From positions 3,993-67,992 of the forward strand of contig JACPIA010000011.1 of NCBI GenBank assembly GCA_016188295.1: a stretch of DNA of 64,000 nucleotides, written 5' to 3'. Positions within the stretch are counted from its first letter, which is position 1; each line of letters begins with the position of its first letter. The position numbers and the translations under genes are program-made. Positions 15,381-31,193 of the stretch are shown piece by piece. The DNA is from Candidatus Vogelbacteria bacterium. Its GTDB lineage: Bacteria > Patescibacteriota > Minisyncoccia > Phycocordibacterales > XYD1-FULL-46-19. A model generated the notes under the pieces. That model was not told the origin of the DNA, did no database searches, and was given only the letters and a program-made list of their open reading frames with translations.

Positions 15381-15430
15381 TACAGATCTGTTAATAAAAA
15401 GTGGATAATTGGGTATAACTAGTAAAACTA

Positions 15431-15458
15431 TTGAATTATTATTTTAGCTGTGTATAAT
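15431..15458 (+). promoter_or_regulatory. Sigma-70-like promoter of rpmH (TTGAAT, 16-nt spacer, extended -10 TGTATAAT)
   Basis: TTGAAT at 15431-15436. TGnTATAAT ends at 15458, only about 10 nt before the rpmH ATG, so the mRNA is essentially leaderless. A DnaA box GTGGATAA lies at 15401-15408 just upstream. Confidence 0.5.
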
Positions 15459-15468
15459 CAGATCTAGT

Positions 15469-15603
15469 ATGTCTATTACCTACCAACCCAAGAAGCGTAA
15501 ACGTAAAACTACCCACGGTTTTTTAGTTCGGTCTAAAAGTAAAACTGGTAAACAGGTTTTACTTCGTCGTCGCCGTAAGGGTCGAGTTAAGTTAACGGTG
15601 TAA
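15469..15603 (+). CDS. rpmH: 50S ribosomal protein L34
   Basis: 44 aa [44 protein letters not shown], a classic L34. It is shorter than the 60-aa cutoff so it is absent from the ORF track. Confidence 0.9.
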
Positions 15604-15605
15604 TT

Positions 15606-15947
15606 ATGGCCCAGTTAGGCCGTCTTTCTCGCGAGTTGATTACACAAGTACTATCTCAAGGGGTCTCAGTTAGATCACCTTATTTTTTAGTCAAAATCGC
15701 TAAATTGAATCAATTATTACCTAATACTACTGGTTTGGCGGTAATAGTACCAGCTAAGGTGTTTAAACAAGCGGTAGTCCGTAATCGGGTTAAACGACAA
15801 ATCAGAGGCTGTTTAATTAAATTAAAAAGTAAGTTAAAGCCTGGTTATGGAACAGTGTTTTTTGGCCAAGTTGGTATAATTAAAGTGTCTCCTTCAGTAT
15901 TATTTAAGGAAATAACTAAAGCTCTACATGATCTCATCACTCTTTAA
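15606..15947 (+). CDS. rnpA: Ribonuclease P protein component
   Basis: Small basic protein in the conserved rpmH-rnpA-yidC arrangement. Confidence 0.8.
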   Translation: MAQLGRLSRELITQVLSQGVSVRSPYFLVKIAKLNQLLPNTTGLAVIVPAKVFKQAVVRNRVKRQIRGCLIKLKSKLKPGYGTVFFGQVGIIKVSPSVLFKEITKALHDLITL

Positions 15948-16638
15948 TAGTCTTTTGGTTACTCCGTTTTATAATATATTAATTATTTTGACGGGCATAA
16001 TCCCAGGGGCGGATATTGGAGTAGCGATCGTTATTTTAACTATTTTAGTTAAAATTCTTCTTTTGCCGTTATATCAACAATCACTTAAAACTCAAAAAGC
16101 TTTAAAGAAGATTGAGCCGGAATTAACTCAAATCAAAGAGAAATATAAAGACAATAAAGTTGAGCAAACTCGTTTAATTTTAGAGTTATACCAAAAATAC
16201 CAAATTCATCCCCTTTCTAGTGTCTTAATGGTTTTTATCCAAATACCGATTATTTTAGCTTTGTTTTTTGTCTTTCGTGATAGTTTGACGACCACTGGAC
16301 ACACTCTTTACTTTTTTGTGATTAAACCGGAGATTATCAGTACTCACTTTTTAGGTCTAATTGATATCACCACTAAAAGTGTATGGTTTGCCGGTTTAAC
16401 CGCTTTAACCCAAGGGATTTATTTATGGCAAACAGTCCCTAAGCCAGAAAAAAAGGAGTTAGGTCAATCATGGCAAAAAGACTTTCAACACGGGATGTCG
16501 CTCCAAATGCGCTATGGCGCGCCAGTTTTAATCTTTTTTGTTAGTTGGGGTTTTCCAATCGCTGTTTCACTTTACTGGATTACTAGTAATATATTTGCCT
16601 CCGGTTTTGAGTTGATTAAAAAACAGTTTGAAGATTAG
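15928..16638 (+). CDS. yidC: Membrane protein insertase YidC (short form)
   Basis: Multi-TM protein following rnpA. Conserved YidC/Oxa1 core. Confidence 0.85.
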   Translation: MISSLFNSLLVTPFYNILIILTGIIPGADIGVAIVILTILVKILLLPLYQQSLKTQKALKKIEPELTQIKEKYKDNKVEQTRLILELYQKYQIHPLSSVLMVFIQIPIILALFFVFRDSLTTTGHTLYFFVIKPEIISTHFLGLIDITTKSVWFAGLTALTQGIYLWQTVPKPEKKELGQSWQKDFQHGMSLQMRYGAPVLIFFVSWGFPIAVSLYWITSNIFASGFELIKKQFED

Positions 16639-17851
16639 CTCGCCATAATTTAGCATCGGATTTATTGATAAAATAAAGATATTTTTTACTTTGATCTAGG
16701 AAGGGGCTAATGCCATCAATAGTCAAGTTTAGACTGGTCGGATTAATTAAAATATCACTGTTACCGCTAGTAATATTTATAGCTTGCAGATTGTCACTAA
16801 AGGTAATCAAGCCTTGATACCAGCTCTCAGGGTAGTTGTTGGTTGGAATGATTTGAGGGATAAAACACCAAATAGTATCTCCTTTAGGCCAAAAACATTT
16901 CTCGGGTAAGGTGATACTCGCTAAAACCACTACTTGTTTGGTTACTAAATTAAATAAATAAGTGGAAATAGAGCCAAAACGAGCGGTATTGTAAATAAAA
17001 CGTTCACCATTAAGCTCAGGACTTAAACTAATACCCGTTGAATTACCGACTAAACGCTCAAGGGTTTTAGTTTTTAAATTTAGACTATAAACCACACTCG
17101 GCATTGAGGAATCTGCTTTGGTCGCTAAGTACAAATTATCAACACTACCCCACCAGACGCGCCAGTCCGGGTAATTTGAGGTCCAAACTAGGGCGCGGCT
17201 GGTACCATCGGGTTTGCTAACATAACCAGCCACCTTGGTACCATTTTGCTCTAAGCTGAAGATGGTTTTGTGATCAGGAGCAGGTGTAATACTATTGATA
17301 TTATTAGCTAATTTAATTGAATTAGTAGTAGGTTCGGTACTAGTAGCGAATAAATCTTTGTTATTAATAACTACTCGGTACCAACCATTATTAGTTTCTT
17401 GACTAGTTTGAATATAAAAATAAGTGTGGTTGGTATTTTGGGCCCAAGTGGCCGTAATGGCTGGGGCTAAGGTGGCGGCGCTTAAGCGGGTGACCTCGCC
17501 TGTAAGAGGATTTAAACGGTAAATGTGACCGGTGGCGCGCTCAATATAAACAATATTAGAACTGGTGCCGGTGTTAATCCAATCAGCAAAAGCGATTGGT
17601 TCCTTAGTGATAACACTCAAAGCTTGGTCCGGTTGATTATTAGTGTTGCTAAATAAATCACCGGTATCAGTTTGATTCACTACCGAGTCGATAAAATTAG
17701 AGACGGTATTGCCAGCCCGCGGAAAAAAAGTTTGGCTGATGGGTATCGGAGTACCATCAACAGCGATAGTACCAAACCAACCTCTCCCCCACCATAAGAT
17801 GCCTAAAGTGATTAAAAGTGAGATTAAAATAATGATTAGTATTTTTTTCAT
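16616..17851 (-). CDS. Secreted/anchored beta-propeller-like protein (hypothetical); last gene of the T4SS-like operon
   Basis: N-terminal signal anchor MKKILIIILISLLITLGILWW. Repetitive beta-rich sequence. Its 3' end overlaps yidC convergently. Confidence 0.5.
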   Translation of the reverse strand: MKKILIIILISLLITLGILWWGRGWFGTIAVDGTPIPISQTFFPRAGNTVSNFIDSVVNQTDTGDLFSNTNNQPDQALSVITKEPIAFADWINTGTSSNIVYIERATGHIYRLNPLTGEVTRLSAATLAPAITATWAQNTNHTYFYIQTSQETNNGWYRVVINNKDLFATSTEPTTNSIKLANNINSITPAPDHKTIFSLEQNGTKVAGYVSKPDGTSRALVWTSNYPDWRVWWGSVDNLYLATKADSSMPSVVYSLNLKTKTLERLVGNSTGISLSPELNGERFIYNTARFGSISTYLFNLVTKQVVVLASITLPEKCFWPKGDTIWCFIPQIIPTNNYPESWYQGLITFSDNLQAINITSGNSDILINPTSLNLTIDGISPFLDQSKKYLYFINKSDAKLWRANLQTVF

Positions 17852-17858
17852 AGACTAA

Positions 17859-18884
17859 CTAAAAATGATTTTTAAAGGAATTAATATCATTTCTAAGGGG
17901 ATTGGTTAGTGCTTCGATATGATAATGAGGGCCACTACCACCATATTGTCCTCGAGTTTCGTCTAATACTGTAATTGAGTCTCTGGAAAAACCATAACGA
18001 TTACGAAAATCAGTTTGATTTAAATTTTGATAATCTTGATAGAATCGGATTCCCGCATCATTGCTCCGAATATCAATTGCATATCCATTATAATGACTAC
18101 TACCTCCGCTATGGCCAGTTACTTCTGATCCGCCAGTAATTACTAATGATTCACTGACTCCATTATTTTGTAGGCCTAAATTTATCCCATTAGCCACCCA
18201 GACCGTTTCATTAGTCCACCCGCCAACACAAGTGGTCGGACAAGGATTGTTGATCATTACTCCATTTGGTCCCAAAACATCACTTCTAATCACACTTTCT
18301 CGCTGGTTGACATCCGTTAGGTTATTAACCTTAGCAACTTGCTCGAATATTTTTTGAGGGACACCAGTAAAATCAGATGTTACCGCATTGATTGGCGTTA
18401 TGGTGTGATTAGGGTCATTGCCATTATTGGTACCGGTGTTGTATCCTAGTCCGCCACTACCGGAACCACCAAAAGTGCCGGTAGTGGCGGGGGTGCGAGT
18501 AATAGTAAAATTAAAATCCAGTAATTTAGGATTGATAGTGTAAAGGAGGGTGTAAGCGCCAATAGCGATCGCCAAGCCCCATAGAGCATTAGTCCACATA
18601 CTCTCAGCCTCGGAGAGGGCACCCGGAGCGTAGCTAACAATGTAATACACCCCACTTAAGACCAACATAAATATTGCCAAACTAACAGCAACCACGAAGG
18701 CCATATTAAATAATTCTTTAGCATAAGTGACAAAATCAATCGCCACATTATTTTCAGTTCGGCCTATTATTTGCGGTTCAAGTAAAATATAGTCGGAGTT
18801 TTGAGCTAAGACGGTTACGCTTTGACTGGTGGTAATAATTAAAACTAGGCTACAGATGACGATTATTAGAAAGTGTTTAGTCAT
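17859..18884 (-). CDS. Membrane-anchored peptidoglycan peptidase (M15/VanY-like C-terminal domain) with signal peptide and two TM helices; candidate T4SS-associated cell-wall hydrolase
   Basis: Signal peptide plus two hydrophobic helices. The C-terminal domain has SxHxxGxAxD (SGGSSHYNGYAIDI) and a His motif (GPHYHIE), as in M15 zinc peptidases. Confidence 0.5.
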   Translation of the reverse strand: MTKHFLIIVICSLVLIITTSQSVTVLAQNSDYILLEPQIIGRTENNVAIDFVTYAKELFNMAFVVAVSLAIFMLVLSGVYYIVSYAPGALSEAESMWTNALWGLAIAIGAYTLLYTINPKLLDFNFTITRTPATTGTFGGSGSGGLGYNTGTNNGNDPNHTITPINAVTSDFTGVPQKIFEQVAKVNNLTDVNQRESVIRSDVLGPNGVMINNPCPTTCVGGWTNETVWVANGINLGLQNNGVSESLVITGGSEVTGHSGGSSHYNGYAIDIRSNDAGIRFYQDYQNLNQTDFRNRYGFSRDSITVLDETRGQYGGSGPHYHIEALTNPLRNDINSFKNHF

Positions 18885-18887
18885 AGT

Positions 18888-20261
18888 TTAAAAATTATCA
18901 CTCAGATCACCTAAAGTGACGCCTAATAACATTTTAGCAGATTGAAAGAGGCTGTCGGGGTTGTTAATATGCACTTCTAAATTAGCCACACCAGTTGAAC
19001 GACTGTTCTCAACTCCTAAACTAGGGCGATTATTACCAATCATCTCACCATTGAGGAACCAATTGTAATTTAAACCACCATCAATCACTAAATTTTGAGG
19101 AAAAAAGTACGGTACCACCCTAATAATTGATTGATTTTTAGTGAGAGTAAAGTTGGTTTGGAGAGCTTGAGCGTAATTGGGCCCAGTCAAAGCGCTCTCT
19201 TCATAAAACAACAATCGGGGTTTAGTAATGGGAATTAAAATAGTGTTATTAGCTCGGAGACTGCCATCGCGGTTCTCGACTGACACTGTGATTTCTTTAG
19301 TTCCGCCAATTGGCGCCTTAAAAGTATAAGTATCTTTACCAAGACCAGAAGATAAAGTCATAGTTTTACCATCATCGCTCCAGTTATAAACTAATTCTGT
19401 GGGCGGTAATTGACGCTTAGTTCGATCAATTAAGATCGGTAGGGCGGTCACTTGGCCAACGGATTCCAAGCTAATTGGCTTACCACCTAAATAGCCAGGT
19501 GGAGTGTAAGTGTCACCACGCCAGATCAAATCTACCTGAGTCGGGATAATCGAGATCGTTACTGTTTTAGTCGAGCTATTAACTGGTATGATTTGAGCTT
19601 TAACTATTACTGGGACACCAATTTTACCGGTTGTCAGACTCAAATGAGAATCGTTATTATTCAGGATTTTTTTGCCATCAATTTGCCAATTAACCTGCGA
19701 ACGCTCAAGGTCAAAAGAGTAACTGGTTAAATCAATAGTGGTTTGGGTGGCTGGTCCGGGGTCACGTGGAGTAATTCGGATCGTTAAGTCCGGAGTGGTG
19801 ATGATATTAGAATCTGCTAACACACTACTAACAGGCAGTAAACAAAGTAAAACAATCGCCACTTTTTTGATAATTTCTCTACCAATCATTTTGAGTTTAA
19901 CTGGGATTCGATTAGTTGGGTTCGCTGGAGCGGGATTAGCTTTTTCTCGATCTTCTTGGTCGGCTTGACGGATGGTTAAGTAAGTGCCGATTAAAAACCA
20001 AGGTAAAAAATTTAATATCGGCACTGCTTCCGCGAACCATGTACCAACGGTTTTTTTAAGCTGTCTAGTGCCGAATAATTTAACACTATTAAGTAAACAG
20101 ATAGAGCCAAAAATTAGATAATAAATTACAGATACCACAGTATTAATTATAGTACCAATCACCAATAACAGTAAAATAATTTGAATAATATCAGCCAAAG
20201 TCGCCACGGTGTAAAGAGTTATTCGGGTTAGCAAACTTAAACGATATTGAACCGGAGACAT
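18888..20261 (-). CDS. Membrane protein with N-terminal TM helices and extracellular beta-rich (Ig-like) region; hypothetical T4SS component
   Basis: 457 aa with N-terminal hydrophobic helices. The remainder is predicted extracytoplasmic. In the operon between the VirB4 genes and the hydrolase. Confidence 0.45.
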   Translation of the reverse strand: MSPVQYRLSLLTRITLYTVATLADIIQIILLLLVIGTIINTVVSVIYYLIFGSICLLNSVKLFGTRQLKKTVGTWFAEAVPILNFLPWFLIGTYLTIRQADQEDREKANPAPANPTNRIPVKLKMIGREIIKKVAIVLLCLLPVSSVLADSNIITTPDLTIRITPRDPGPATQTTIDLTSYSFDLERSQVNWQIDGKKILNNNDSHLSLTTGKIGVPVIVKAQIIPVNSSTKTVTISIIPTQVDLIWRGDTYTPPGYLGGKPISLESVGQVTALPILIDRTKRQLPPTELVYNWSDDGKTMTLSSGLGKDTYTFKAPIGGTKEITVSVENRDGSLRANNTILIPITKPRLLFYEESALTGPNYAQALQTNFTLTKNQSIIRVVPYFFPQNLVIDGGLNYNWFLNGEMIGNNRPSLGVENSRSTGVANLEVHINNPDSLFQSAKMLLGVTLGDLSDNF

Positions 20262-20266
20262 AATAT

Positions 20267-22078
20267 TTACTGGCTGGTGGCTAAATCAACCTTTGATTGT
20301 TTGATCGCTAAGAGTTGTGACGGGTCCGAGGTGATGATCTGATCTTCGGTATAGGAGGCAATAATCTTAATGGCTACGTGTTTGAGGCCGGCAAAAAAAA
20401 TTCCTTCTCCCACATTAGACTCTAAGAGCAAGAATTTTTCCTCATCGGTTAAATTAAAAGTTTTTTGGACTAAATCAATGGAAGCTGGTGATTGCTTCAG
20501 TAATAATTGGATCGAAGAGTTAGTGATAATCGGTAAGCCATAAGGTGATTTAAGGAAGTCACCGACATCTTGAGTAATAGTAGCAATCCCTAAATAGTAT
20601 TTACGTCCGCGTTTAACCAAGGAAAAAAGGAACGAAGCGGTATCCTCCGTCTTCATCATCCACCATGCCTCGTCCACCACCATTAAGCGCTTTTTCAGAT
20701 TGCGACGGACGGCATTCCAAATATGATGCATCACCACATACATGGCTACTGGTTTAAGTTCATCCTCCATGTCTCGCACCGAGAAGACGACAAACTTTTT
20801 ATTAATATCCACATTGGTCGGCCGATTAATAAAACCAGACCATGAGCCTTGAGTGTATTTGAGCAAGCGTTGGGCCAACGATTCCCCGCCTTCCATTCCC
20901 GCAAGCACCAGCTCCAAGTCAGACAATAGCGGGGCTGGCTTGTTTGAAAAATCAGTATCCGGAGTAATATCTTTAAGGGCGTAAGTCTCACTAATAGCAC
21001 TATCAATAATCGAATCTTCTTCCGGAGTCAGGCCACCCAACATAATCCGGAACAAGCCCACTAAGTTGATAATATTGGAGCGCAAAATATCGGCTGGCGA
21101 TTCATCATCACGAGGGATCGGTAAATCAAACGGATTGATATGGTGCTCGGAAGTAAGTGAAATATTAAAATAACGTCCACCGACCGCCTCGCTTAAAAAC
21201 TCATACTCCCGCTCGGGATCGATGACAATCACATCAGTTTCAAACATTAAACTGCGCAAAATCTCAAGTTTAGTAGTGTAGGATTTACCGGCGCCCGATT
21301 TGGCAAAAATGACCGAGTTATAGTTTTCCAGTGAAAAACGATCAAACAAGACCAGCGAAGCGTTGTGACGATTAACGCCATAGAGAATCCCTTGATTAGA
21401 AGTAAGATCAAAAGAAATAAACGGGAACAGACTGGAAAGAGGTGACGAATTTAATTTGGAATTGATATTAAGCAAATCAAGACCAAGAGGAACCACACTC
21501 TTAAAACCATCTTCTTGTCGGAGAAAAGCCGGCTTTAAGTAAATTAATTTAGAATCTAAAATCGATTTAATGGTATTTTCCGTTTTAGATAATTCTTCCT
21601 CGGTATCCTCATAAATAGTGATGTAGAGACCCACGGAAAAAAGTTTTTCCCGAGCTTGTTGGAGTTGGTCGCGCAGGCTCTCGATGTCGCGATAAGCGAC
21701 ATCGAGTACGGGATCACGAACCAACCCCTTTTCTTCTCTAATCTGGACTTGACTTTGGACTTCAGCCACTTTTCTTTGTAAGTTGCGCAAAGCGCCAGCG
21801 GTATCGATCGGATGGACATAAATCGAGACATCAAACACTTTATCAAGATTGATGATTGGTGAAAACCAACCTTCACTTAAAAAGCGCGGGTATGAGATGA
21901 CAAAAAACGTACGCGCCACCTTTTCCCCCAAGTTAATGCTTTGGGAACTAATTTGCAGTGCCGCCGGAGCGATAATATCTTTTAACTCTAAGATCCCAGC
22001 CTGATATACATCGGCCGGTAAAATTGGTAAGACCGAGGTGTCGGTAACCGAGTTTAAAGTTTTTCTAAATAAAGCCAT
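20267..22078 (-). CDS. VirB4/TrbE-family T4SS ATPase, C-terminal ATPase part (split gene)
   Basis: Walker A AKSGAGKSY and Walker B MVVDEAWWMM (the DEAW motif typical of VirB4). 603 aa. Begins 6 nt after the stop of the upstream N-terminal part. Confidence 0.75.
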   Translation of the reverse strand: MALFRKTLNSVTDTSVLPILPADVYQAGILELKDIIAPAALQISSQSINLGEKVARTFFVISYPRFLSEGWFSPIINLDKVFDVSIYVHPIDTAGALRNLQRKVAEVQSQVQIREEKGLVRDPVLDVAYRDIESLRDQLQQAREKLFSVGLYITIYEDTEEELSKTENTIKSILDSKLIYLKPAFLRQEDGFKSVVPLGLDLLNINSKLNSSPLSSLFPFISFDLTSNQGILYGVNRHNASLVLFDRFSLENYNSVIFAKSGAGKSYTTKLEILRSLMFETDVIVIDPEREYEFLSEAVGGRYFNISLTSEHHINPFDLPIPRDDESPADILRSNIINLVGLFRIMLGGLTPEEDSIIDSAISETYALKDITPDTDFSNKPAPLLSDLELVLAGMEGGESLAQRLLKYTQGSWSGFINRPTNVDINKKFVVFSVRDMEDELKPVAMYVVMHHIWNAVRRNLKKRLMVVDEAWWMMKTEDTASFLFSLVKRGRKYYLGIATITQDVGDFLKSPYGLPIITNSSIQLLLKQSPASIDLVQKTFNLTDEEKFLLLESNVGEGIFFAGLKHVAIKIIASYTEDQIITSDPSQLLAIKQSKVDLATSQ

Positions 22079-22084
22079 ATCTTA

Positions 22085-22708
22085 TTATACCGTCTCAGGG
22101 ATATTAACCTCGCCGGGATTAAAAGCCTTGAAGTAAAGCTCGACCAGTTCTTCGGTGCCCAAAAGCTCGACGCGGACCCCCAAGCGTCCCAAACCTTGAC
22201 GGACTACGTCGACTCTCTGCTCTAATTGATTGCGCTCCTCTTCAAACGCCAGGGTCTCCACCGTCTTAGCTGGTTGGCGTTTGAATAATTTAATCCACCA
22301 GCCTTGGCGATTTTGAATAATCGGTGGAGTGTAAGGGATGACCACAAAAAAACTTTTGGTCATAATATTATTATTCTCGGTAAAACTTTTAATAAATTCG
22401 ATATACTCTTGTGTCTGGACTTTAAGCAAGTCATTGGTTTGGCTTTTTAAGCGTTCTTCTAAAATACTGATGTAGGGGCGGATATCTAATCGGCGCGATT
22501 GAACAAATATTTGCAAGTAAAAATCCAGCGAATTAAGAAAGTTTTGGTATTGGAGCAATAGGCCTTGTTGTTCGTCACGGGACTTTAAAGCAAAATTAAT
22601 AGATGAGGCAATAAGTACAGCCCGTAGCGATCCATCTTTTAGTACCACGACGCCGTCGCGGACTTCTTCGATAGGGACAAATGATTGAGTGCTTTTAGGA
22701 GTGGTCAT
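22085..22708 (-). CDS. VirB4-family ATPase, N-terminal part (split gene)
   Basis: 207 aa. The N-terminal region VPIEEVRDGVVVLKDGSLRAVL resembles the VirB4 N-terminus. Ends with tandem stops TAA TAA. Combined with the next ORF it is about 810 aa, a typical VirB4 length. Confidence 0.6.
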   Translation of the reverse strand: MTTPKSTQSFVPIEEVRDGVVVLKDGSLRAVLIASSINFALKSRDEQQGLLLQYQNFLNSLDFYLQIFVQSRRLDIRPYISILEERLKSQTNDLLKVQTQEYIEFIKSFTENNNIMTKSFFVVIPYTPPIIQNRQGWWIKLFKRQPAKTVETLAFEEERNQLEQRVDVVRQGLGRLGVRVELLGTEELVELYFKAFNPGEVNIPETV

Positions 22709-22712
22709 ATTA

Positions 22713-23114
22713 TTATTTAATCTTTTCCGTGATATCCAAACTCCAAGCTAAGTCGTGTAATTTGCTTTTTGATAATTTAGGGATGGTGGGCGCTAGTGGT
22801 TTAGTAGTTATTTGAGACGTTATTGTTTTGGGCGCCTCTTTTTTCCAGATGTAATTTTTACGAGCCAAGGCAAAATAGAGACCAGCTTCGAGTATCGCAA
22901 TGAAGGGCTGGTTATTGTACTTAAAAAAAGCCAGCGCCAGCCCTAGTCCGGCCACTGCCAGCATCGGGATAATTTTAATCGCAAAAGGTAAGGGTAAAGT
23001 ATAAACCAAAAAGGCCAATCCTCCCCCACCAGTCAAATAGATAAATTGTTTAAAAGTAAGGGGGCCAAAGACCTGATCCTCGACCTCGATAAATTGTGGG
23101 ACTTGAAAGTTCAT
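22713..23114 (-). CDS. VirB3-like small two-TM membrane protein
   Basis: 133 aa, two hydrophobic helices, immediately upstream of VirB4 as in T4SS loci. Confidence 0.4.
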   Translation of the reverse strand: MNFQVPQFIEVEDQVFGPLTFKQFIYLTGGGGLAFLVYTLPLPFAIKIIPMLAVAGLGLALAFFKYNNQPFIAILEAGLYFALARKNYIWKKEAPKTITSQITTKPLAPTIPKLSKSKLHDLAWSLDITEKIK

Positions 23115-23120
23115 AATTGT

Positions 23121-23567
23121 TTACTCGATCGATTCGCGATACGGATCATTTACCTGACGCACGGTCTCGGTGCGAGCCAGTGAGATTGGATGAGACAAGC
23201 GCTCTCGGAAAATAGGCTGATTAGGTGCGGGGACATTTGTTTTGGGTTCCGTTAAAGCTAAGAGCGACTCTCTAATTTTAGCAAAAATCTCAGCATTTAC
23301 CTCACTGGTAACTACCCGGGCCTCATCAGGGGTAAAACCGTACTCCTCACGGAGATTAATCGGTAAGCGATTAGGGTGGATTAAACCAAGTAAAATAAGC
23401 CCAACCTCATCAGCTAATCCTCCAATTTTGTCTAAATGAAGATTATGACGTAAGCCAATGGATTTAATGGTTTTGGCGGTGTCTAGAGAGTTAAAAACCT
23501 CCTGAATCTCCTCCGGTAATAATTTAAATTGGTTATTCAATTCTTCTGGAGTGTAAGTTTTAGACAT
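23121..23567 (-). CDS. Hypothetical cytoplasmic protein of the T4SS-like operon
   Basis: 148 aa with no TM segment. Position is conserved between the VirB6-like and VirB3-like genes. Confidence 0.4.
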   Translation of the reverse strand: MSKTYTPEELNNQFKLLPEEIQEVFNSLDTAKTIKSIGLRHNLHLDKIGGLADEVGLILLGLIHPNRLPINLREEYGFTPDEARVVTSEVNAEIFAKIRESLLALTEPKTNVPAPNQPIFRERLSHPISLARTETVRQVNDPYRESIE

Positions 23568-23569
23568 AG

Positions 23570-26524
23570 TTACATTATTAATCCAGTAGTCTGGTCAACA
23601 TAAGCCGGGTTATTTATAAATTGATCAAATTGACCATTAACATTAGCGCGCAGAGGAGCGGTCTGGTTTATTGCCGCTCTTTGTAATTCTTGTTTAATCC
23701 GCAATATCACATCACCATTCATTTTGCGGCCAATATTTTTAAAGTCATCAATCGACAAGCCCGCTTGGTCAATCTTAGTTAACATTTGCGCGTTCTGAGT
23801 AAATAAGTTAACTGCTTCTGATTTATTGCCAGACACTAGGTTTGGTAGATGATCATTAATCGCTCCAACTAAAGTTTGTCGATCAGCGGTAGTGGCTTGA
23901 GCAATACTTCTTAATTCGGACAATGCTTGCTGAACTTGCGCTGGAGTAATTGGTGGAGTTTGGCCACTAGTCTGATTACTTCCCCCGGCACGATCGCTAC
24001 CATCTCTAATTGGAGTGGTATTAGTATTACCGATTTGATTAGTGTTACCAGTCGGATTAGTTTCTGTTGTTTGTGTAGTTGAAGTTGGTTTAGGAATACC
24101 CCAACTGGCTCTAGTGTTGCCGGCTCCAATTTCCTGATAAAGGGCATTATTTTGGTTTTGGATATAGTTACGCATCTGTTCCAATTGACTATGGTTGAGC
24201 TTATCACGAATGGCATTAATCTCACTGTAGTTTAGGGATTTTGCAACCACTGGATTAATTAGCGTGTCGATCTTAAAGTCTTTAAGATCGTTATTATTAA
24301 AGCCAGCCAAGGTCTCATTAACCGCTTTTTCGGTGGCATCAATTTTATCTTGAGTGGCCTTGTTGGCAACATTTTTACCATTTACCTTAACAACATTACC
24401 ACTGCTATCTTTTGCGTGTTCGTCTTTAATATTTCCTGCTTCATCAAATAGATCATTTACTGATTTAGTGGCGTTTTCAATAGTTTTGCCCGCTTTATCA
24501 ATTTTATCTTTTTTATCTTTCTTCTTCTTGTCCTCCTCCTCTTTTTCAACGTCTTTTAATTTTTTAGCATCTTCCGCCCGCTCTTTACCCGCTTTGCCTA
24601 AAAAGCCAATCCCTAAACCACTAGTAGTAGCAACAGTGTCGCTCGCATAACGAAGAGGGTGTAATATATTTTCCTTGATTGGTTTGGTGGTAGAAATAAC
24701 TTTTTTACCTAGATCGGTTTTAGCCAAATAATCACCGACTGGTTTTATTTTTTTATACGTTGTATCCACTAGTCGACCACCCGCTCCCCCAAGGAATGTT
24801 TTATCAGTTTTTGAGGCGACCGCACCAATTGCTCGGCCACCATAACCACCTGTTTTTCTAATCGTACCCCAGGCGGCCCCAGCACCCAAAGCGGTGATTC
24901 CCCCTGCTAGTGCCATGGCGCCAGTCGCGCCAATACCACCAATCTTTTTGGCAATGACTAGTGAATAGACCATAAAGCCGATTAAAATGATATAAGCAAT
25001 CAAGAGACGGAAAAAATCAAAACTAACACTACCAGTGCCATCAGCATCAACACGGGGCGCGCCTGTATTACTAATTGTAATAGCTTGAGCAATTTGAATG
25101 GTGATATAAAACATAATCATAAACACCGGCAACCAGACCGTTTCAGAAATTAACTTGTTCCACCAACCACCAGTTTCTTTTTTAAGAAAGTCTGGTAAAA
25201 TCATCGAACCAAAGGCAATTGGTGAGGTCATGATTAACATCAACAGGGTGATAATTCTCACTATCAACATAAAAGCCACCGTTAATAATACAAAGGCGGC
25301 TACTAACACTAGAATAATCTGCACAAATGAATCAAAAATGATCCGATAAGCTTCATATCGGCTAGTATTTTCATTTAGTCCAAATTGATTATTGGTATCG
25401 CCATTATAATCATTAAGACCCAGTGGCATTTTATCGATTAGTGCTCTAACTAAGTCAGGAGCCTTGGTAATGCTGGTATTGTTTGTTTGGCCGTTGATCG
25501 GAGTCATTCCACGATAAAAGGTTACCGATATCACATTGGTGGCATCAATGATTATTTTAGGGAAAATGGCGCTGAAGTTGATCAGCAGAGCGGCAATAAT
25601 GATATTAGTGATCATTTTTTTAGCATTAACTTCCGATCGGCGTAAAATGGTGCCAATGGCCACGTAAAGTAAAATAAAAATAAAAGCGATATTAAACAAA
25701 TCACGAATGATGGTCCAACCGATATTGATCGCGGTACCCAATGGGAAATATAATTTGTCACTGTTTCCTCCGGAAGTTTTAAGATACTCATGAAAATCTA
25801 TCACTGATAATTTTAATATGGCGTTAAATAATTCATTGGCCAAATACAGGATCCAAGCAAAAACAGATAAAACTATACGCATTAGGTAAGCCGTACCATA
25901 GAGTAGACAATCTTGGATCGTCCAACTAAGTATTCCGGAACACCGAAGCATATTATCCTTATTCCGGATCTCGGTTTCGTGATCACTAATACTACTAGTA
26001 AGGGTAGTCTGGTGATTAGTGGCAATTTGACGCTCGTTTTCCAAGAATCGTATTTGATTTTGCAGATACTCATTTTCTACCGCATCTTCGCTAGTCGATA
26101 AATCTAAACCAATTTGTTGATCCCTTAAGTTTTGGATTTGTTCGTCATAATTAGCCCATCCAACATAATCTCTGATTGCGTCTCTTTGGCGATAAAAGTT
26201 ACTGATGCCAGCACTGGTTGGGTATTTTTCATTAAGCCAATTATTAAAACTAGTGATAGTTTGACGAGAGCAACCATCCCGCCCAGTGTTTTGAGTGTCC
26301 CGACAAAATCTATCTAAATAATCTCGCCCATAATCTTGCCCAACCACCTGACTAGTGGTGTAATCGATCATTCCAGTACCACCTTGAGCATAAATAATTT
26401 GTGGTAGAGTTATTAAAAACAACACCATCAACAACCGTAATAACTGGCTATTTTTAATAGTAAAAAACTCTTTCATCTTACAATAGTAGTTTCGACTTCG
26501 GCGGATTGGGTACCGTTGGTGCAA
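23570..26524 (-). CDS. VirB6/TrbL-like polytopic membrane protein with long low-complexity C-terminal tail
   Basis: 984 aa. Signal peptide, about 200-aa extracytoplasmic domain, many TM helices, then an about 400-aa G/K/D/E/T/N-rich tail. Confidence 0.45.
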   Translation of the reverse strand: MHQRYPIRRSRNYYCKMKEFFTIKNSQLLRLLMVLFLITLPQIIYAQGGTGMIDYTTSQVVGQDYGRDYLDRFCRDTQNTGRDGCSRQTITSFNNWLNEKYPTSAGISNFYRQRDAIRDYVGWANYDEQIQNLRDQQIGLDLSTSEDAVENEYLQNQIRFLENERQIATNHQTTLTSSISDHETEIRNKDNMLRCSGILSWTIQDCLLYGTAYLMRIVLSVFAWILYLANELFNAILKLSVIDFHEYLKTSGGNSDKLYFPLGTAINIGWTIIRDLFNIAFIFILLYVAIGTILRRSEVNAKKMITNIIIAALLINFSAIFPKIIIDATNVISVTFYRGMTPINGQTNNTSITKAPDLVRALIDKMPLGLNDYNGDTNNQFGLNENTSRYEAYRIIFDSFVQIILVLVAAFVLLTVAFMLIVRIITLLMLIMTSPIAFGSMILPDFLKKETGGWWNKLISETVWLPVFMIMFYITIQIAQAITISNTGAPRVDADGTGSVSFDFFRLLIAYIILIGFMVYSLVIAKKIGGIGATGAMALAGGITALGAGAAWGTIRKTGGYGGRAIGAVASKTDKTFLGGAGGRLVDTTYKKIKPVGDYLAKTDLGKKVISTTKPIKENILHPLRYASDTVATTSGLGIGFLGKAGKERAEDAKKLKDVEKEEEDKKKKDKKDKIDKAGKTIENATKSVNDLFDEAGNIKDEHAKDSSGNVVKVNGKNVANKATQDKIDATEKAVNETLAGFNNNDLKDFKIDTLINPVVAKSLNYSEINAIRDKLNHSQLEQMRNYIQNQNNALYQEIGAGNTRASWGIPKPTSTTQTTETNPTGNTNQIGNTNTTPIRDGSDRAGGSNQTSGQTPPITPAQVQQALSELRSIAQATTADRQTLVGAINDHLPNLVSGNKSEAVNLFTQNAQMLTKIDQAGLSIDDFKNIGRKMNGDVILRIKQELQRAAINQTAPLRANVNGQFDQFINNPAYVDQTTGLIM

Positions 26525-29433
26525 CGGAGACGATACACTGGCGGTGCGGTGGTAATATCAATTTGACCAGTGCCAATCGAGGTTAATGAGGTGTAAGTAA
26601 AGCGGTACAAAGCAAAAGTGGGGTTGGCGCCAATTGCCGCTTTTAGTTTATCAATCATTGTGCTTACAGTATCGTTCTCGGCAACAGTGACACTAACACT
26701 GCTCGGAGTGCCACCGGCCGCCAGTTTAATAGTTATGACATCTCCCGTCACAATATCACTAGTCTGTAATGCCAAAGAGGCATTACCCCTTAGGCGATCA
26801 CCACTAATGCTTGGGGCAATAGTTAAATTAGACTCAGTTGTGTTTCGGGTTCGGGTAAAAGCGACCTCAAAAGTAAAAGGGAATTTAATACTCAATGAGC
26901 CATAGCGTTCAACTTCTTCACCACTGCGTTTAAGGACTTGGAGCGTGCCAGTGGCGCTTCCGGCCGAGAGCCAAGGATTGCCGGCCACACAACTGTCACC
27001 AATGATTAGCGACCAGTTGATTGTGGCGGTATTAGGCGCTGTACCGTTGGTAATATTACCTAAACTAGGTGAGGTAAAACGGATGCGAGCGGTGGGAGGA
27101 ATCAGGTTTAATAAATCACCAGGGTTGATATTAGGTAAATTACCACCCAGATTCGAACCACCATTGCCACCACCGAGGTGGAAGAAATTAATTAGGCCAT
27201 TGGCACGAGAGGCCCCCGGAGCGTTGAGAGTTTGGATGAGTTCAGTATTTGGTTCGGCGCCTTTAACTAAGTCGGTTTGTTCATCAACGCTGACTAATTT
27301 TTCAATCCGAGCTTCGTTAACCGACTCTAAATTAGCGCCAATAATTCGACCCGGGGTAACGGTGATCCATTTTACACAATTATTCTCTTGGTCGTACTTG
27401 TTACACTCTTTTTTAGGGGCAATACCTTGGCCGGCCAAGTATTCATCACGGGCATTTTGCTCGGCCGCCGCTTGACGCTGGCTTTGGATTGCTAAATTGT
27501 TTAACAGCGAGGAACTCGGATTGTTATTTTTAGTAAAATCGTGGAATTTGAGAAAGCGATCCCAAAAGGTTGCGGAGTCAAGCTGGTCCGGATTATTGAT
27601 TAGTTCTTGATATTCACTTCGACTTAAAGTTGATTGGTAAGGGTCATTCAACTCATCACCCTTTAGCGTTTTAAGGGTCTGTTTGCGAAAGGTGTCGCTC
27701 GAGCGTTCCAATTCAGCTAAGCCGATTTTCATAGCCTCCTCGCGCGCCTCCCTCACATAAGTGGCCGGATCTTTAACTAATTCATTTTTCTTAATAAAAT
27801 TAACCACTTGATTACCAATTTTATCGAGATTTTTAGCTGACTGTTCCGAAGCTTTGCGATCATCCACTAATTCTTTTTTCTGCATATCGGCGGCGATTTT
27901 TTTAGCTGTCTCGGTATCGGCACAATTTTTGTTTTCGAGATCTCTGATTTTTTTAGTATCGATACTGATGCCACTCTGATCATTAACCAATGCGTCCGTC
28001 GGTACTCGGGCGAATGGTAGAATGTTTATTACTTGATCAATTGCACCATTAACAAAATCATTTACTCGTTGAGTAATACGATTGGAGAGTTCGGTGATGG
28101 GACTTAATACTCGATCCATCATATCGCTTAAACCATCAGCAAAGGGTTGGACCACACTATCAACCAAGCCATCCATAGCGGAGGTAAAGGGCTCGGTAAT
28201 GCTATTAACTAAGCCACCAGTGATTGCTACGATCGGTTCAGTTATTAAATTGACCATACCGCCAATCGCGGCGTTTATTGGGTTAGCGACGGCCGAGAGG
28301 GCGGTGGTCATCGTATCGGAGACCGCTTGGGAGATTGGAGCACTAATTTGAGCCACTACTTCATTAATAGTGTTGTCCAAGCTGGTTAAGGCGATATCGG
28401 AGAGTTCGTCACCCAAGTCGGCCAGCTCATCGCTTAGCGAATCTGCCAATTGATTGCTAGCCGAATTTATTGATTCTCTAAATTCTTGTTGAGAAAAAAT
28501 GATGTTTAATTGCTGGGACAAAATATCCTCCATTTGGCCGGCGATTTCATTGCTAAATTGACCAAACATCGGATTATTTTCAATAGAATCTCCGATTAAG
28601 TTAATTGATCCGTTTAATAATTCATCTCGGAATTGTCCGGCATTGCCTATTAAAATACCTAATTGATTGCGACCTTGAGCTGAAAGAGGTTCGTCATTCA
28701 AATCATCAATGGTGTCGTCAATAGCATCATTAAACTCATCTAACAATTCACCACGAATGTCGGTCGTTAAACCACTGTTCGGATCACGCAGGGCTCCTTG
28801 CAAGATACCTGGTCCCAAGGTACGGAAGTCGTTACTTAAAACTCGCGGTAATTCTCGTTGTAGGCCGTTAAGCAAAATAATCGGTAACTGTTGTTGAATA
28901 ATCGCTCTAATAATGTCTGGGCCAATGTCTTGCGGATCAACCCCTTGATTAATTAAACCGGCAATTTGCGTGGTTAGTTCACGGGTAATACCCTCTGTCA
29001 CTACTTGATTAACCACATCAGGCATACGCTCATTTAAAATACCAGCAAATTGTTCCGGTAATTGCTCTAATAAAGCACCTTCGATAATTTCCGGTAAGCG
29101 CTCTTGGAGCACCCCTTGTAATTTACCAGCCAAACCATCAAAATATTTACTACCCTGACATTTTTGTTTGTCTTTACTGCGATTTTGCTGGAGCTGGCTG
29201 GAGGCTTGATTGCTACCGCTGTTGTAATTATCGGGAACCAATTCCCGATCCTGATTAGGATCGCCATCATAGGTGATATTGTCTCCAGTAACGGTATTAT
29301 TCCAAACACCAGAATCTTCAGTTTCTACAAACACTGCCGCTTGAGTAATGACTGGCAACAAATTTACTACCAACAACAGCCAAGCGATATTAAATTTAAT
29401 TTTGTGAGGTTGAAGTGGCATAAGTAGTATCAT
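26473..29433 (-). CDS. Large secreted repeat protein (986 aa), candidate surface/adhesin component of the T4SS-like locus
   Basis: Signal peptide (LLLVVNLLPVITQAAVF). Internal degenerate repeats (GxVNxITEPxxxA). Overlaps neighbours by 52 nt and 38 nt. Confidence 0.5.
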   Translation of the reverse strand: MILLMPLQPHKIKFNIAWLLLVVNLLPVITQAAVFVETEDSGVWNNTVTGDNITYDGDPNQDRELVPDNYNSGSNQASSQLQQNRSKDKQKCQGSKYFDGLAGKLQGVLQERLPEIIEGALLEQLPEQFAGILNERMPDVVNQVVTEGITRELTTQIAGLINQGVDPQDIGPDIIRAIIQQQLPIILLNGLQRELPRVLSNDFRTLGPGILQGALRDPNSGLTTDIRGELLDEFNDAIDDTIDDLNDEPLSAQGRNQLGILIGNAGQFRDELLNGSINLIGDSIENNPMFGQFSNEIAGQMEDILSQQLNIIFSQQEFRESINSASNQLADSLSDELADLGDELSDIALTSLDNTINEVVAQISAPISQAVSDTMTTALSAVANPINAAIGGMVNLITEPIVAITGGLVNSITEPFTSAMDGLVDSVVQPFADGLSDMMDRVLSPITELSNRITQRVNDFVNGAIDQVINILPFARVPTDALVNDQSGISIDTKKIRDLENKNCADTETAKKIAADMQKKELVDDRKASEQSAKNLDKIGNQVVNFIKKNELVKDPATYVREAREEAMKIGLAELERSSDTFRKQTLKTLKGDELNDPYQSTLSRSEYQELINNPDQLDSATFWDRFLKFHDFTKNNNPSSSLLNNLAIQSQRQAAAEQNARDEYLAGQGIAPKKECNKYDQENNCVKWITVTPGRIIGANLESVNEARIEKLVSVDEQTDLVKGAEPNTELIQTLNAPGASRANGLINFFHLGGGNGGSNLGGNLPNINPGDLLNLIPPTARIRFTSPSLGNITNGTAPNTATINWSLIIGDSCVAGNPWLSAGSATGTLQVLKRSGEEVERYGSLSIKFPFTFEVAFTRTRNTTESNLTIAPSISGDRLRGNASLALQTSDIVTGDVITIKLAAGGTPSSVSVTVAENDTVSTMIDKLKAAIGANPTFALYRFTYTSLTSIGTGQIDITTAPPVYRLRCTNGTQSAEVETTIVR

Positions 29434-30112
29434 CAGTAATGGTTAGGTAAAAAATAATTCCCTCGTTCGGTTGGAAAGTTACTTTATTCTTAGTAAAAAA
29501 ATCATTAATACTCTCGGATTTGCGGTAAAATGAGAGCGCGTAACGAATATAGCGGTTGGCGCTCTCTAAAGCTAAGATTGGCTCATCTAACACTTGAGCC
29601 ATATTGCCAGCGAGGTAGGCCATTCGACTGGTGTGAAAAAGGAGTGACAAATGGAGTGACACTGCTGGTTTTGGCACGGTGGTCGCCAGCAATTTAGTTG
29701 TCGCCTCTTGATGTATCGCTTGAGCTTGTTTTATTGTCTCAAGTGCGGCGCCATTTTTTTGCTCAATCGCTTGGTCTAAGGCGGCCAGCTCACTCCCTCG
29801 GGGAGTGGCGTAGGCTCGTAAAGTATCGGCTAAAGCCAAACCATACTGCCTCAGGATGGCGGTATCGGTTTTAGTGGTAACAATTAAGTCTTTTTCTGTA
29901 AATTCTCGAGGCAATAAGGCGGCATCATATTGCTTTAAAGCCTTTTTTTGAGTTGCTACTTCGGCGACTAATTTTTCGACCGGAGTGGTGGGGACGCTGG
30001 CAGGTGTTCGCCCGAGATACCAAAGTCCCCCGGCTAAAACCAAGAGGATAATTAAAATTACCAGTACTACCTTTTTGCTGGGTAGAAGATTATACATAAC
30101 CACTTTCTCCAC
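29396..30112 (-). CDS. Bitopic membrane protein (N-terminal TM plus about 200-aa external domain); VirB8-like by architecture only
   Basis: 238 aa. Single TM KVVLVILIILLVLAGGLWYL. First gene of the operon. GTG start; ATG at 30097 is possible. Confidence 0.4.
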   Translation of the reverse strand: MEKVVMYNLLPSKKVVLVILIILLVLAGGLWYLGRTPASVPTTPVEKLVAEVATQKKALKQYDAALLPREFTEKDLIVTTKTDTAILRQYGLALADTLRAYATPRGSELAALDQAIEQKNGAALETIKQAQAIHQEATTKLLATTVPKPAVSLHLSLLFHTSRMAYLAGNMAQVLDEPILALESANRYIRYALSFYRKSESINDFFTKNKVTFQPNEGIIFYLTITDDTTYATSTSQN

Positions 30113-30193
30113 TCTCTATTATAATATGCTTTAAACTAGTTTGGTCCTTAATTTAAGCGATATTAGTGGATAAACTTATGTTATAGTGGCAAT

Positions 30194-30814
30194 ATGTTGT
30201 GTCGCTCGGGAATTATTTTAGGTTTAATTATTTTAATTAGTACTTCGAGTGTCTCGGCGGCGGTTGATTTAACTAGCGAGGTGTCGCGTTTACAAGCATT
30301 AGTGGCTAGTTTACAGGCCAAGCTTAATCAACTACTTAATCAAGTAATTGAGCGAGCTACTTTAGGTGGAGCGGCCTCCCCTTTACCTCAAACGGTACCA
30401 GTTAGTCCAGTTAACACACCTAGTTTGCCGGCATTAGGGGTATCTGGAATGAATTTCCCTCCCGAGCCCAAGCGCTCAACTACCACGTTTATTGAGAATT
30501 TAAGTCCAAGTTCCGGTCCGGTTGGTACAGTAGTAACCATTAAAGGTCGTGGCTTTACTACCCAATCTCCTAATACCATTTATGCCAGTTATCAGGTGAT
30601 TAAAGGGGTAAAATCGCGTGATGGTACTACCCTTACTTTTATCGTTTCGGCCTTTGATAATGATTTTGCCGGCCCTAAGGTGTTTAAAAATCGTCCAGCA
30701 GGCCGAACAGTCTCACTGCCTTTGATTGTGACGGTTCAAAATGATACTGGTATTAGTAATGATATGATGTTTACAGTCACTTACCCGGCTCCAATTTATG
30801 AACCACAAATTTAA
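30194..30814 (+). CDS. Secreted protein with N-terminal coiled coil and IPT/TIG-like beta-sandwich
   Basis: Signal peptide (ILISTSSVSAA). SPSSGPVGTVVTIKGRGFTT is an IPT/TIG-like motif. Divergent from the T4SS operon. Confidence 0.5.
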   Translation: MLCRSGIILGLIILISTSSVSAAVDLTSEVSRLQALVASLQAKLNQLLNQVIERATLGGAASPLPQTVPVSPVNTPSLPALGVSGMNFPPEPKRSTTTFIENLSPSSGPVGTVVTIKGRGFTTQSPNTIYASYQVIKGVKSRDGTTLTFIVSAFDNDFAGPKVFKNRPAGRTVSLPLIVTVQNDTGISNDMMFTVTYPAPIYEPQI

Positions 30815-31193
30815 ATTATTGATTGCAGTAATAATGTTAAGTACCTTAGTGTTGCCTAATGCTTATGCAATCGGTAATCCCTCGGTATTGGTAGCGTCTA
30901 ATTTTGGCGGTCGAATTTTAGCTACTATCCCCTGTACTTGTACTTTTAATTTAAAATTAATTTTAAGTCCAGTGGCACCTACTTTACCTGTAGAGGTAAT
31001 CTTTCAACCGGGGATTAGTATTTTGTATCGTTACGGGATGTTAGTACCAACCGCTTGGGTGTTAGGGCGGACCATCGGTTCGTCTACGTGTTGGGTCGGT
31101 TTAATCCCGTTTTGTGTACCAGTACCGAGTGTGGAGGGGGGAATTGTAAGCCCATTGATTCATATGGTGGGCACTTCTTTGCCAGGAATATAG
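30798..31193 (+). CDS. Small secreted hydrophobic Cys-containing protein; candidate pilin-like subunit
   Basis: Signal peptide (LVLPNAYA), then an about 105-aa mature part with two hydrophobic segments and 6 Cys. Confidence 0.4.
   Translation: MNHKFKLLIAVIMLSTLVLPNAYAIGNPSVLVASNFGGRILATIPCTCTFNLKLILSPVAPTLPVEVIFQPGISILYRYGMLVPTAWVLGRTIGSSTCWVGLIPFCVPVPSVEGGIVSPLIHMVGTSLPGI

Follow-up and report, generated by a model that had tools for sequence, protein, structure and literature searches.

The locus described here belongs with the type IV secretion systems (T4SSs) of Patescibacteria, which have been described in recent years from single hosts and across the phylum. We analysed a stretch of 64,000 nucleotides from Candidatus Vogelbacteria (assembly GCA_016188295.1, contig JACPIA010000011.1, positions 3,993 to 67,992), referred to below as the window, in which ten minus-strand genes encode such a system beside the replication gene dnaA. 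In Southlakia epibionticum epibiotic growth requires the T4SS (SEML1_0006-0019), which includes pilins and lacks a relaxase (Wang 2023, Cell, PMC10633639). The main text of a phylum-wide survey (Quinonero-Coronel 2025, Microb Genom, PMC12102498) places the VirB4 proteins of Patescibacteria in a monophyletic clade nested in the mating-pair-formation class MPF-FATA. It gives TrsD as the most abundant neighbour, with PrgI, VirB6 and VirB2-like pilins near virB4 and VirB8 mostly undetectable; relaxases are rare, genes for type IV coupling proteins (T4CPs) are mostly distant, and dnaA, dnaN, rnpA and ksgA are the neighbours in Paceibacteria. In Paceibacterales grown with methanogen hosts the T4SS pilins rank with the proteins of highest expression (PMC10936435), and tubular structures have been seen by microscopy at the host interface, with VirB4 tied to macromolecule transfer in an RNA-feeding parasite (bioRxiv 10.64898/2026.06.21.733656). 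The function of the Patescibacteria T4SS has been called "completely unknown", effector delivery or nucleotide import being the proposals (PMC11665869, PMC12857230).

With a probability that we put at about 80%, the locus derives from the mating-pair-formation machinery of monoderms (MPF-FATA) and is no longer tied to conjugation. It is an origin-proximal, non-conjugative T4SS cluster carried by nearly all ultra-small Patescibacteria. Going by the features that the survey lists, it can be assigned to the Patescibacteria clade: the host is right, a VirB4 with a separate TrsD-like open reading frame (ORF), a PrgI (VirB3), a VirB6-like protein and a VirB2-like pilin are encoded together, a wall hydrolase gene lies downstream of virB4, no relaxase was found, the T4CP gene is elsewhere, and dnaA, dnaN, rnpA and ksgA are close by. 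A first-pass annotation, made from the letters of the window alone, had already proposed a monoderm-type, relaxase-less T4SS-like operon of the candidate phyla radiation, probably not serving plasmid conjugation, and this core reading stands.

The operon fills positions 16616-30112 with ten ORFs of 238, 986, 984, 148, 133, 207, 603, 457, 341 and 411 amino acids (aa), all in one direction as first described. The nine junctions between them measure, in order, -38, -4, 2, 6, 4, 6, 5, 3 and 7 bp, the -4 junction (an ATGA overlap with the preceding stop) presupposing that the 984-aa ORF starts at ATG 26476; this spacing is that of a putative translationally coupled operon. To compare the locus, relatives of the ATPase were sought in one genome per GTDB species, and 551 were confirmed, each from the genome of a different species. 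Counts out of 80 given below refer to the best 80 of these 551, chosen as the top VirB4 matches; many of the 80 loci are cut short by contig ends.

The 603-aa protein, listed at first pass as a VirB4-family ATPase on its SGAGKS and DEAW motifs, is confirmed as such by the NCBIfam conju_CD1110 VirB4 model (377.8 bits, cutoff 325), the match beginning at model position 185 of 752. Its Pfam matches are P-loop_TraG (E 3e-25), AAA_10 and DUF87, and in the PDB it matches the solved C-terminal domain of Thermoanaerobacter VirB4 (4AG5, E 6e-44) and TrwK (E 6e-8). The 207-aa ORF in front of it, overlooked in the earlier gene list, matches three VirB4 models at their N-terminal positions (CD1110 2-119/752; Mbov_0397, a Mycoplasma VirB4 model, 101-233/894; VirB4_CagE 5-153/792), all three under the curated cutoffs, and to the TrsD/TraD model with E 6e-7 and 29.4 bits against a cutoff of 200. 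Because this ORF covers the N-terminal model positions that the 603-aa protein lacks, VirB4 is predicted to be split in two, a TrsD-like N-domain ORF and a C-terminal ATPase ORF. The TrsD-like protein is a separate ORF adjoining virB4 in 79 of the 80 loci.

The next protein upstream, of 133 aa, matches Pfam PrgI with 39 bits (cutoff 27), has a hydrophobic region at residues 36-66 and is present in 75/80 loci. It is the protein that had been described as VirB3-like and directly upstream of the ATPase: the identity holds, the adjacency does not, its gene lying one ORF away with the 207-aa ORF between. In one related locus (L048, 8834-9900) the tblastn matches to PrgI and the TrsD-like protein are opposite in strand to virB4, possibly a local inversion or an assembly artefact.

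The large polytopic protein encoded upstream of prgI-virB4, in the position of prgH in the prgH-prgI-prgJ order of plasmid pCF10, is probably VirB6. Its open frame reaches back to TTG 26524, which gives 984 aa, and ATG 26476, followed by a signal-like N-terminus, is the most likely start. The protein has a signal or anchor segment, some 6-7 transmembrane helices and a hydrophilic tail of about 400 aa, rich first in G/A, then in K/D/E and then in N/T. At E<=1e-3 its core has 13,747 representative relatives, and a tblastn search of this core against 72,556 plasmids gave no match. Of the earlier description as a polytopic VirB6/TrbL-like protein with a biased tail, the topology and the tail are confirmed, while the VirB6 identity is supported indirectly.

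The 341-aa protein is built of a signal peptide and two hydrophobic helices (residues 1-128), a Gly-rich linker and a C-terminal peptidase domain. When its positional orthologues were scanned singly, 31 of 36 matched Pfam T4SS_pilin (PF18895) and 6 of 36 TrbC/VirB2 (PF04956); a leave-one-out hidden Markov model (HMM) of the N-terminal 130 residues of the orthologues recovered the window protein with E 1.8e-28, the sole match among 187 window ORFs. As judged from these profiles, the N-terminal domain is a VirB2-like T4SS pilin. The C-terminal 165 residues contain SSHYNGYAID and HYH, and in the 9-member subfamily of this C-terminal domain the motifs H-x6-D and H-x-H are invariant (H89, D96, H145 and H147 of the aligned fragment), which is the zinc signature of LAS/M15 peptidases; the domain has no homology to VirB1 (SLT). 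Orthologues at the same place carry VanY, Peptidase_M15_4, NlpC/P60, YkuD, SLT or Amidase_5 domains, or end as bare pilins of 100-145 aa, and a C-terminal extension of at least 100 aa is found in 54 of the 70 pilin-domain proteins at this operon position. On this domain content, the T4SS pilin of Paceibacteria seems as a rule to carry an interchangeable wall hydrolase. Since both termini of VirB2 lie outside the membrane, the fused hydrolase would face the wall. For the membrane-anchored M15 peptidase of the first-pass annotation, the enzyme type is probable and the anchor is a VirB2-like pilin domain; because of this domain, the operon is not a pilus-less set of the minimal Gram-positive type.

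Here the window departs from the published Patescibacteria systems. It has one pilin-domain gene, whereas the published systems have arrays of 2-11 pilins, and this pilin domain is fused to a LAS-type peptidase, as a small polytopic protein is fused to a protein with three immunoglobulin (Ig)-like domains. That main text, to which the supplementary tables may add, describes neither a pilin-hydrolase fusion or domain swapping, nor a fusion of the membrane ORF with the Ig-like protein, nor the five unannotated families of the operon as fixed members; in the legend of the published synteny figure these families appear as unannotated genes (PMC12102498).

The best 80 relatives all come from metagenome-assembled genomes (MAGs) of Patescibacteria (Paceibacterota, Nomura-, Taylor-, Kaiser-, Campbell-, Zambryski-, Vogelbacteria and others), with VirB4 identities of 73-81%, and the arrangement recurs in them with the same order and chromosomal position. 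The common order obtained by tblastn is uvrD, ksgA, (DUF192), 238-like, 986-like, VirB6-like, 148-like, PrgI, TrsD-like, VirB4, (small membrane ORF), Ig-like, pilin(-hydrolase), propeller, yidC, rnpA, dnaA, dnaN; in iterative searches the fast-evolving families reach higher counts, 47-69 of the 80 loci. The position beside dnaA is fixed in 52-59 loci, the remainder being truncated by contig ends. Judged by this order, the ten genes, the five accessory families included, are conserved as one unit. Median identities in the same genomes were 76% for VirB4, 58% for the TrsD-like protein, 58% for DnaA, 50% for UvrD, 47% for PrgI, 42% for KsgA, 40% for YidC, 39% for DnaN and about 27-28% for the accessory proteins. 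By these values the VirB4 motor is under stronger constraint than DnaA, though the choice of loci favours VirB4, and the identities of the two proteins correlate weakly (rho 0.34, p 0.013), as expected under vertical descent. Because the gene order recurs and VirB4 is 73-81% identical, above DnaA, the locus appears to be a vertically inherited core system and not a mobile element.

The link to conjugation was sought in the surroundings of the operon. The VirD4-like protein noted at first pass some 5.5 kb away is borne out as a divergent coupling-protein-like ATPase of 791 aa: it just passes the Pfam thresholds for T4SS-DNA_transf (31.6 bits, cutoff 20.1) and TraG-D_C (22.7 bits, cutoff 22), and it has partial NCBIfam matches to SXT_TraD and CD1115, all under their cutoffs. 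In none of the 80 related loci does a T4CP-like gene lie within 10 kb of virB4. No relaxase family was matched by any of 30 ORFs scanned between 5036 and 43072, in line with the absence remarked on before, and oriT was not searched for. Because no relaxase was found and the T4CP is unlinked, conjugation is unlikely. Instead of a plasmid-derived conjugative element with a relaxase just outside, an outcome that the first-pass annotation had held open, we find a locus fixed beside dnaA in many species.

Between ksgA and uvrD lies a 221-aa ORF resembling REP-associated tyrosine transposases of the Y1/HUH type (Pfam Y1_Tnp, E 4e-7; NCBIfam NF047646, E 2e-11, under cutoff). Systems of the ICEBs1 type use PcrA, and we considered this ORF together with the UvrD/PcrA helicase as a cryptic relaxase module. 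The candidate was rejected: the Y1 gene is absent from this site in the relatives, where uvrD and ksgA are adjacent in an ordinary conserved synteny, and the sole other Y1 copy among the 80 loci sits inside the T4SS operon of locus L077 (7984-8766). Synteny, identities, the unlinked T4CP and a Y1 gene confined to the window together exclude a recently acquired mobile element.

Several points weigh against the reading of the locus as a derived MPF-FATA machine. The placement of its VirB4 in the published Patescibacteria clade is inferred from the 73-81% identity to Paceibacteria proteins, and this identity is inflated relative to the flanking genes because the 80 loci were chosen as the best VirB4 matches. 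The 984-aa protein of the window has no Pfam match, and its family profile returned nothing useful against PDB sequences; Pfam TrbL matches 5 of 56 orthologues (best E 6e-5), where about 0.6 would be expected by chance at that threshold, and the other families matched are two singletons. When the 984-aa family was aligned with hhalign to 14 pCF10 transfer proteins, the VirB6-like PrgH came out best with a probability of 13.8%. By itself the 341-aa window protein has no Pfam match and no PDB sequence match for either its pilin or its peptidase domain, and no VirB8-like protein was found in the operon by profile searches (Pfam, PDB) or models. Gene spacing is what suggests transcription of the ten genes as a single operon, consensus scans for promoters and terminators over 15300-31300 having returned the shuffle background, uninformative either way. 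Finally, cargo, direction of transfer and even the formation of a pilus are inferences here.

Among conjugation systems outside the phylum, pCF10 (PrgH-PrgI-PrgJ-PrgK-PrgL, MPF-FATA) comes close. It shares with the window the CD1110 VirB4 family and the PrgI family, and the order VirB6-like, VirB3, VirB4, membrane-anchored hydrolase is collinear with prgH-prgI-prgJ-prgK. The window differs in that VirB4 is split, in its VirB2-like pilin, which Gram-positive systems lack, in a hydrolase that is a LAS peptidase instead of SLT+CHAP and in a non-mobile, chromosomal locus; it yielded no PrgL/VirB8-like protein, no relaxase, no linked T4CP and no LPXTG adhesin of the PrgB type. An hhalign comparison of eight operon families with 14 Prg/Pcf proteins of pCF10 yielded nothing beyond the weak PrgH match. 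The Trs systems of pGO1/pSK41 (TrsC-TrsD-TrsE) likewise encode, directly before VirB4, a separate TrsD-type protein related to the VirB4 N-terminus; unlike them the window has a TrsD match of 29 bits against the cutoff of 200, and a probable VirB6. To our knowledge, the pGO1 subclass has no VirB6 homologue.

The remaining five families of the operon are accessory in the sense that none belongs to the recognised core. The 238-aa protein, with a transmembrane helix at residues 15-33 and a probably helical outside domain, is encoded at the same operon position in 49/80 loci (iterative search). It had been proposed as a VirB8-like protein on its bitopic architecture; it is bitopic, and VirB8 finds no support, for a 48-sequence profile of the family matched neither VirB8 nor NTF2 entries in PDB or Pfam, hhalign gave less than 2% probability to PrgL or PrgD of pCF10, and an AlphaFold2 model built from four close sequences, all-helical, is unreliable at a predicted local distance difference test (pLDDT) score of 41.7. 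Bacterial TSP3 calcium-binding repeats occur in 11 of 48 orthologues.

The 986-aa protein consists of an L/I/D/Q-rich helical N-terminal region, a Cys-containing core (residues ~500-780) and a variable, T/S-rich C-terminus. Of the secreted repeat protein seen in it at first pass, the N-terminal hydrophobic segment remains and the repeats do not, none being found with Tandem Repeats Finder or by self-BLAST. The core is present in 47/80 loci by iterative search, its profile has no PDB or Pfam match, the sole Pfam match of the whole protein is a weak DUF445, and F5/8 type C lectin domains are additionally present in a few orthologues. The core may be an undescribed extracellular domain, and the whole protein is a candidate for an adhesin or another component of the surface or the pilus. 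Conserved Cys, Trp and Gly positions were observed over residues ~468-786 (27076-28032, minus strand), with a consensus that includes WINxGF, PQNNP and TPGxVI.

The family of the soluble 148-aa protein is present in 69/80 loci by iterative search, between the VirB6-like and PrgI genes, and matches nothing in Pfam or the PDB. It ends, behind a Pro-rich linker, in a D-P-Y-x-E motif (D141, P142, Y143 and E145 invariant or nearly so), a tail that resembles a docking peptide. In relatives, extra ORFs of about 120 aa occur inside the operon between the 148-like and prgI genes (L001:8464-8832, L005:8430-8807, L008:8500-8862 and about nine more loci). Among 66 sequences of small operon ORFs, Pfam matches were 23S_rRNA_IVP 10, bAvd-like 5, GIY-YIG 1 and NYN 1, with the matches unassigned to particular ORFs; the 12 ORFs of this gap are suggested as the source of the 23S_rRNA_IVP matches by their size and position. 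The gap seems to be a preferred site of small selfish insertions, of which the window has none.

NCBI holds a sequence identical to the 457-aa protein, HYV76_02950, for a Candidatus Vogelbacteria MAG. A model of residues 125-457 of this protein shows a transmembrane helix and three beta-sandwich domains (pLDDT 88), which agrees with the Ig-like membrane protein of the earlier description. The first 115 residues form a small polytopic module that in about 38 relatives is a separate ORF directly after virB4. Two further assignments were tried and rejected: as the missing VirB8/TcpC-like (NTF2) component the protein fails on the three Ig-like domains of the model, and its N-terminal membrane module as a second pilin on an hhalign probability of 3.6% to the pilin domain. 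Of the secreted beta-propeller predicted earlier, the fold is borne out by a 60-sequence profile of the 411-aa family, which matches TolB structures (7MX5, E 9e-5). The protein has a hydrophobic segment at residues 4-22 and an invariant Cys pair (C319 and C329) and is present in 62-63 of the 80 loci; Pfam PD40 was matched by 4 of 60 orthologues and PG_binding_1 by 3 of 60.

Table 1. Coordinates of the ten operon genes and of the neighbouring features in the 64,000-nt window.
Feature	Position	Strand	Remarks
Bitopic membrane protein, 238 aa	29396..30112	-	operon's first gene; 233 aa from ATG 30097 (NCBI annotation)
Sec-signal protein, 986 aa	26473..29433	-	hydrophobic segment at residues 12-30
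Probable "extended" VirB6/TrbL-like polytopic channel subunit	23570..26476	-	968 aa from ATG 26476
Soluble, probably cytoplasmic protein, 148 aa	23121..23567	-	no transmembrane segment
PrgI family (VirB3 equivalent), 133 aa	22713..23114	-	hydrophobic hairpin; Pfam PF12666
TrsD-like VirB4 N-terminal domain (predicted), 207 aa	22085-22708	-	own ORF between PrgI and ATPase genes
VirB4 ATPase, C-terminal motor part, 603 aa	20267..22078	-	Walker A SGAGKS, Walker B DEAW
Membrane module, anchor and Ig-like domains, 457 aa	18888..20261	-	module (residues 1-115), transmembrane anchor, three tandem Ig-like beta-sandwich domains
Predicted VirB2-like pilin and LAS-type (M15-like) zinc peptidase domains, 341 aa	17859..18884	-	
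TolB-like beta-propeller, 411 aa	16616..17851	-	operon's last gene; membrane-anchored or secreted
yidC	15928-16638		operon 3' end runs convergently into it
rnpA			beyond yidC, on the operon's 3' side
dnaA	13968-15380		beyond yidC
dnaN	12681-13781		beyond yidC
IPT/TIG Ig-like secreted protein, 206 aa	30194-30814	+	divergent from operon; seen in 1/80 related loci
REP-associated tyrosine transposase-like (Y1/HUH) ORF, 221 aa	32397-33062	-	between ksgA and uvrD
UvrD/PcrA helicase	33272-35161		
Divergent VirD4/TraD-type coupling-protein-like ATPase, 791 aa	35606..37981	+	outside operon; N-terminal transmembrane segments
LysM-LysM-Peptidase_M23 wall hydrolase	38161-39084	+	180 bp after T4CP-like gene
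PilB	5036-6784		confirmed
ComM	39988-41529		confirmed

The window is chromosomal (Table 1). On the side of the first gene the operon is followed outward by the divergent TIG-domain protein, a DUF192 protein, ksgA, the Y1 transposase-like ORF and uvrD, and past uvrD by the T4CP-like gene, the LysM-M23 peptidase, a LexA-like protein and comM; elsewhere the window holds tRNAs, tyrS, a class A penicillin-binding protein, ruvB, pilB, a CCA-adding enzyme and xerD. PilB and ComM had been reported as nearby and are indeed so. The TIG-domain protein probably stands outside the conserved system, because it was found in only one of the related loci. VirB1-like proteins with M23/LysM domains are noted in Patescibacteria in the main text of the survey (PMC12102498). 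DnaA-box-like 9-mers (0-1 mismatch to TTATCCACA) flank dnaA on both sides as expected, at 13831, 13884, 15400 and 15449, and another lies at 30165-30173 on the minus strand, in the 81 bp between the operon's first gene and the gene divergent from it; the whole window has 31 such matches against 17.6 expected. Over 12001-14000 (dnaN and the dnaA-dnaN intergenic region) the G+C content falls to 0.27, against ~0.40-0.45 elsewhere, consistent with an AT-rich origin region.

A working model of the machine can be sketched from its parts. VirB3 and the probable VirB6-like polytopic protein would form a membrane platform, on which a VirB4 hexamer would extract pilin subunits and power the building of a pilus or conduit that crosses the wall of the cell itself. 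The pilin-fused hydrolase, outside the membrane, would make local openings in peptidoglycan, either that of the cell itself or possibly that of the host, and the Ig-like, TolB-like and 986-aa proteins would make up the wall-spanning or host-contact part. By moving macromolecules into or out of the host cell on contact, the machine may thereby support an episymbiotic way of life. A bolder version, speculative and in our judgement rather unlikely, takes the Paceibacteria pilin as normally fused to an exchangeable wall-degrading module, which makes the pilus a drilling device, and at the same time takes the five accessory families (the helical bitopic protein, the 986-aa Cys-core protein, the DPYxE-tailed cytoplasmic protein, the three-Ig protein and the TolB-like propeller) as the outer apparatus of a monoderm T4SS. 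If this were true, the pilus would carry or release an enzyme that breaches the host wall and is tuned to the wall chemistry of each host, and the five families would be outer-apparatus parts without counterpart in any solved T4SS.

It is possible, though we lean away from it, that the machine imports host DNA, RNA or other macromolecules into a nucleotide-auxotrophic cell, in the manner of archaeal Ced or Helicobacter ComB, and is no exporter of effectors. Those systems are likewise driven by a VirB4-family ATPase, relaxase-independent and non-conjugative, and they are precedents for import by functional analogy only; the relaxase missing from the scanned ORFs and the unlinked T4CP fit such a role. 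Nucleotide acquisition through the T4SS has been proposed in reviews because ComEC is dispensable and the T4SS essential in Southlakia (PMC11665869, PMC12857230), and feeding on host RNA has been reported, with VirB4 linked to macromolecule transfer (bioRxiv 10.64898/2026.06.21.733656). The similarity of the 603-aa ATPase to CedB is weak and partial, however (E 7.7e-11, far under the cutoff), and extends over no more than some 70 residues in the neighbourhood of the P-loop. No CedA- or ComB-specific component was found in the window, the profile searches identified no nucleic-acid-binding or nuclease component in the operon, and sequence fixes no direction of transport.

A second rival confines the machine to the VirB6-like, VirB3, TrsD, VirB4 and pilin genes and regards the 238-, 986-, 148-, 457- and 411-aa proteins as unrelated envelope or adhesion genes that share the operon. 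These five are without detectable homology to any T4SS component and evolve fast (~27% median identity), yet we find this improbable: their order and positions in the operon are kept in 47-79 of the 80 loci, their genes overlap or abut core genes (-38 to +7 bp), and the small membrane module, where it is not part of the Ig-like protein, has its own ORF directly after virB4. In the Southlakia cluster, moreover, accessory proteins are essential along with the core, according to the original study and the main text of the survey (PMC10633639, PMC12102498).

To an integrated conjugative element or decayed conjugative plasmid, with relaxase or oriT elsewhere or diverged and still exporting the element's own DNA, we give almost no credence: its VirB4, PrgI and TrsD families are typical of Gram-positive conjugative elements, and a T4CP-like ATPase lies 5.5 kb off with a Y1/HUH enzyme and a UvrD/PcrA helicase between, but the operon sits at the same ksgA / yidC-dnaA site in dozens of species without integrase or att-type boundaries, VirB4 is more conserved than DnaA, the T4CP is linked to virB4 in 0/80 loci, the Y1 gene occurs here in the window genome alone, the 30 scanned ORFs lack a relaxase match and, in the figures of the survey's main text, relaxases occur in only 103 of 3,035 Patescibacteria genomes (PMC12102498).

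The system as such is already published (PMC10633639, PMC12102498) and the locus adds nothing categorically new, so that the novelty implied at first pass is largely gone. What remains new is a corrected parts list, the five conserved accessory families and the pilin-hydrolase fusion, in a clean and complete Paceibacteria example with every gene delimited. Patescibacteria make up a large share of bacterial diversity and depend on hosts, and apart from theirs no T4SS is known to be required for growth (PMC11665869, PMC12857230). The locus bears on the way in which a monoderm cell of ultra-small size connects itself to its host by a conduit.

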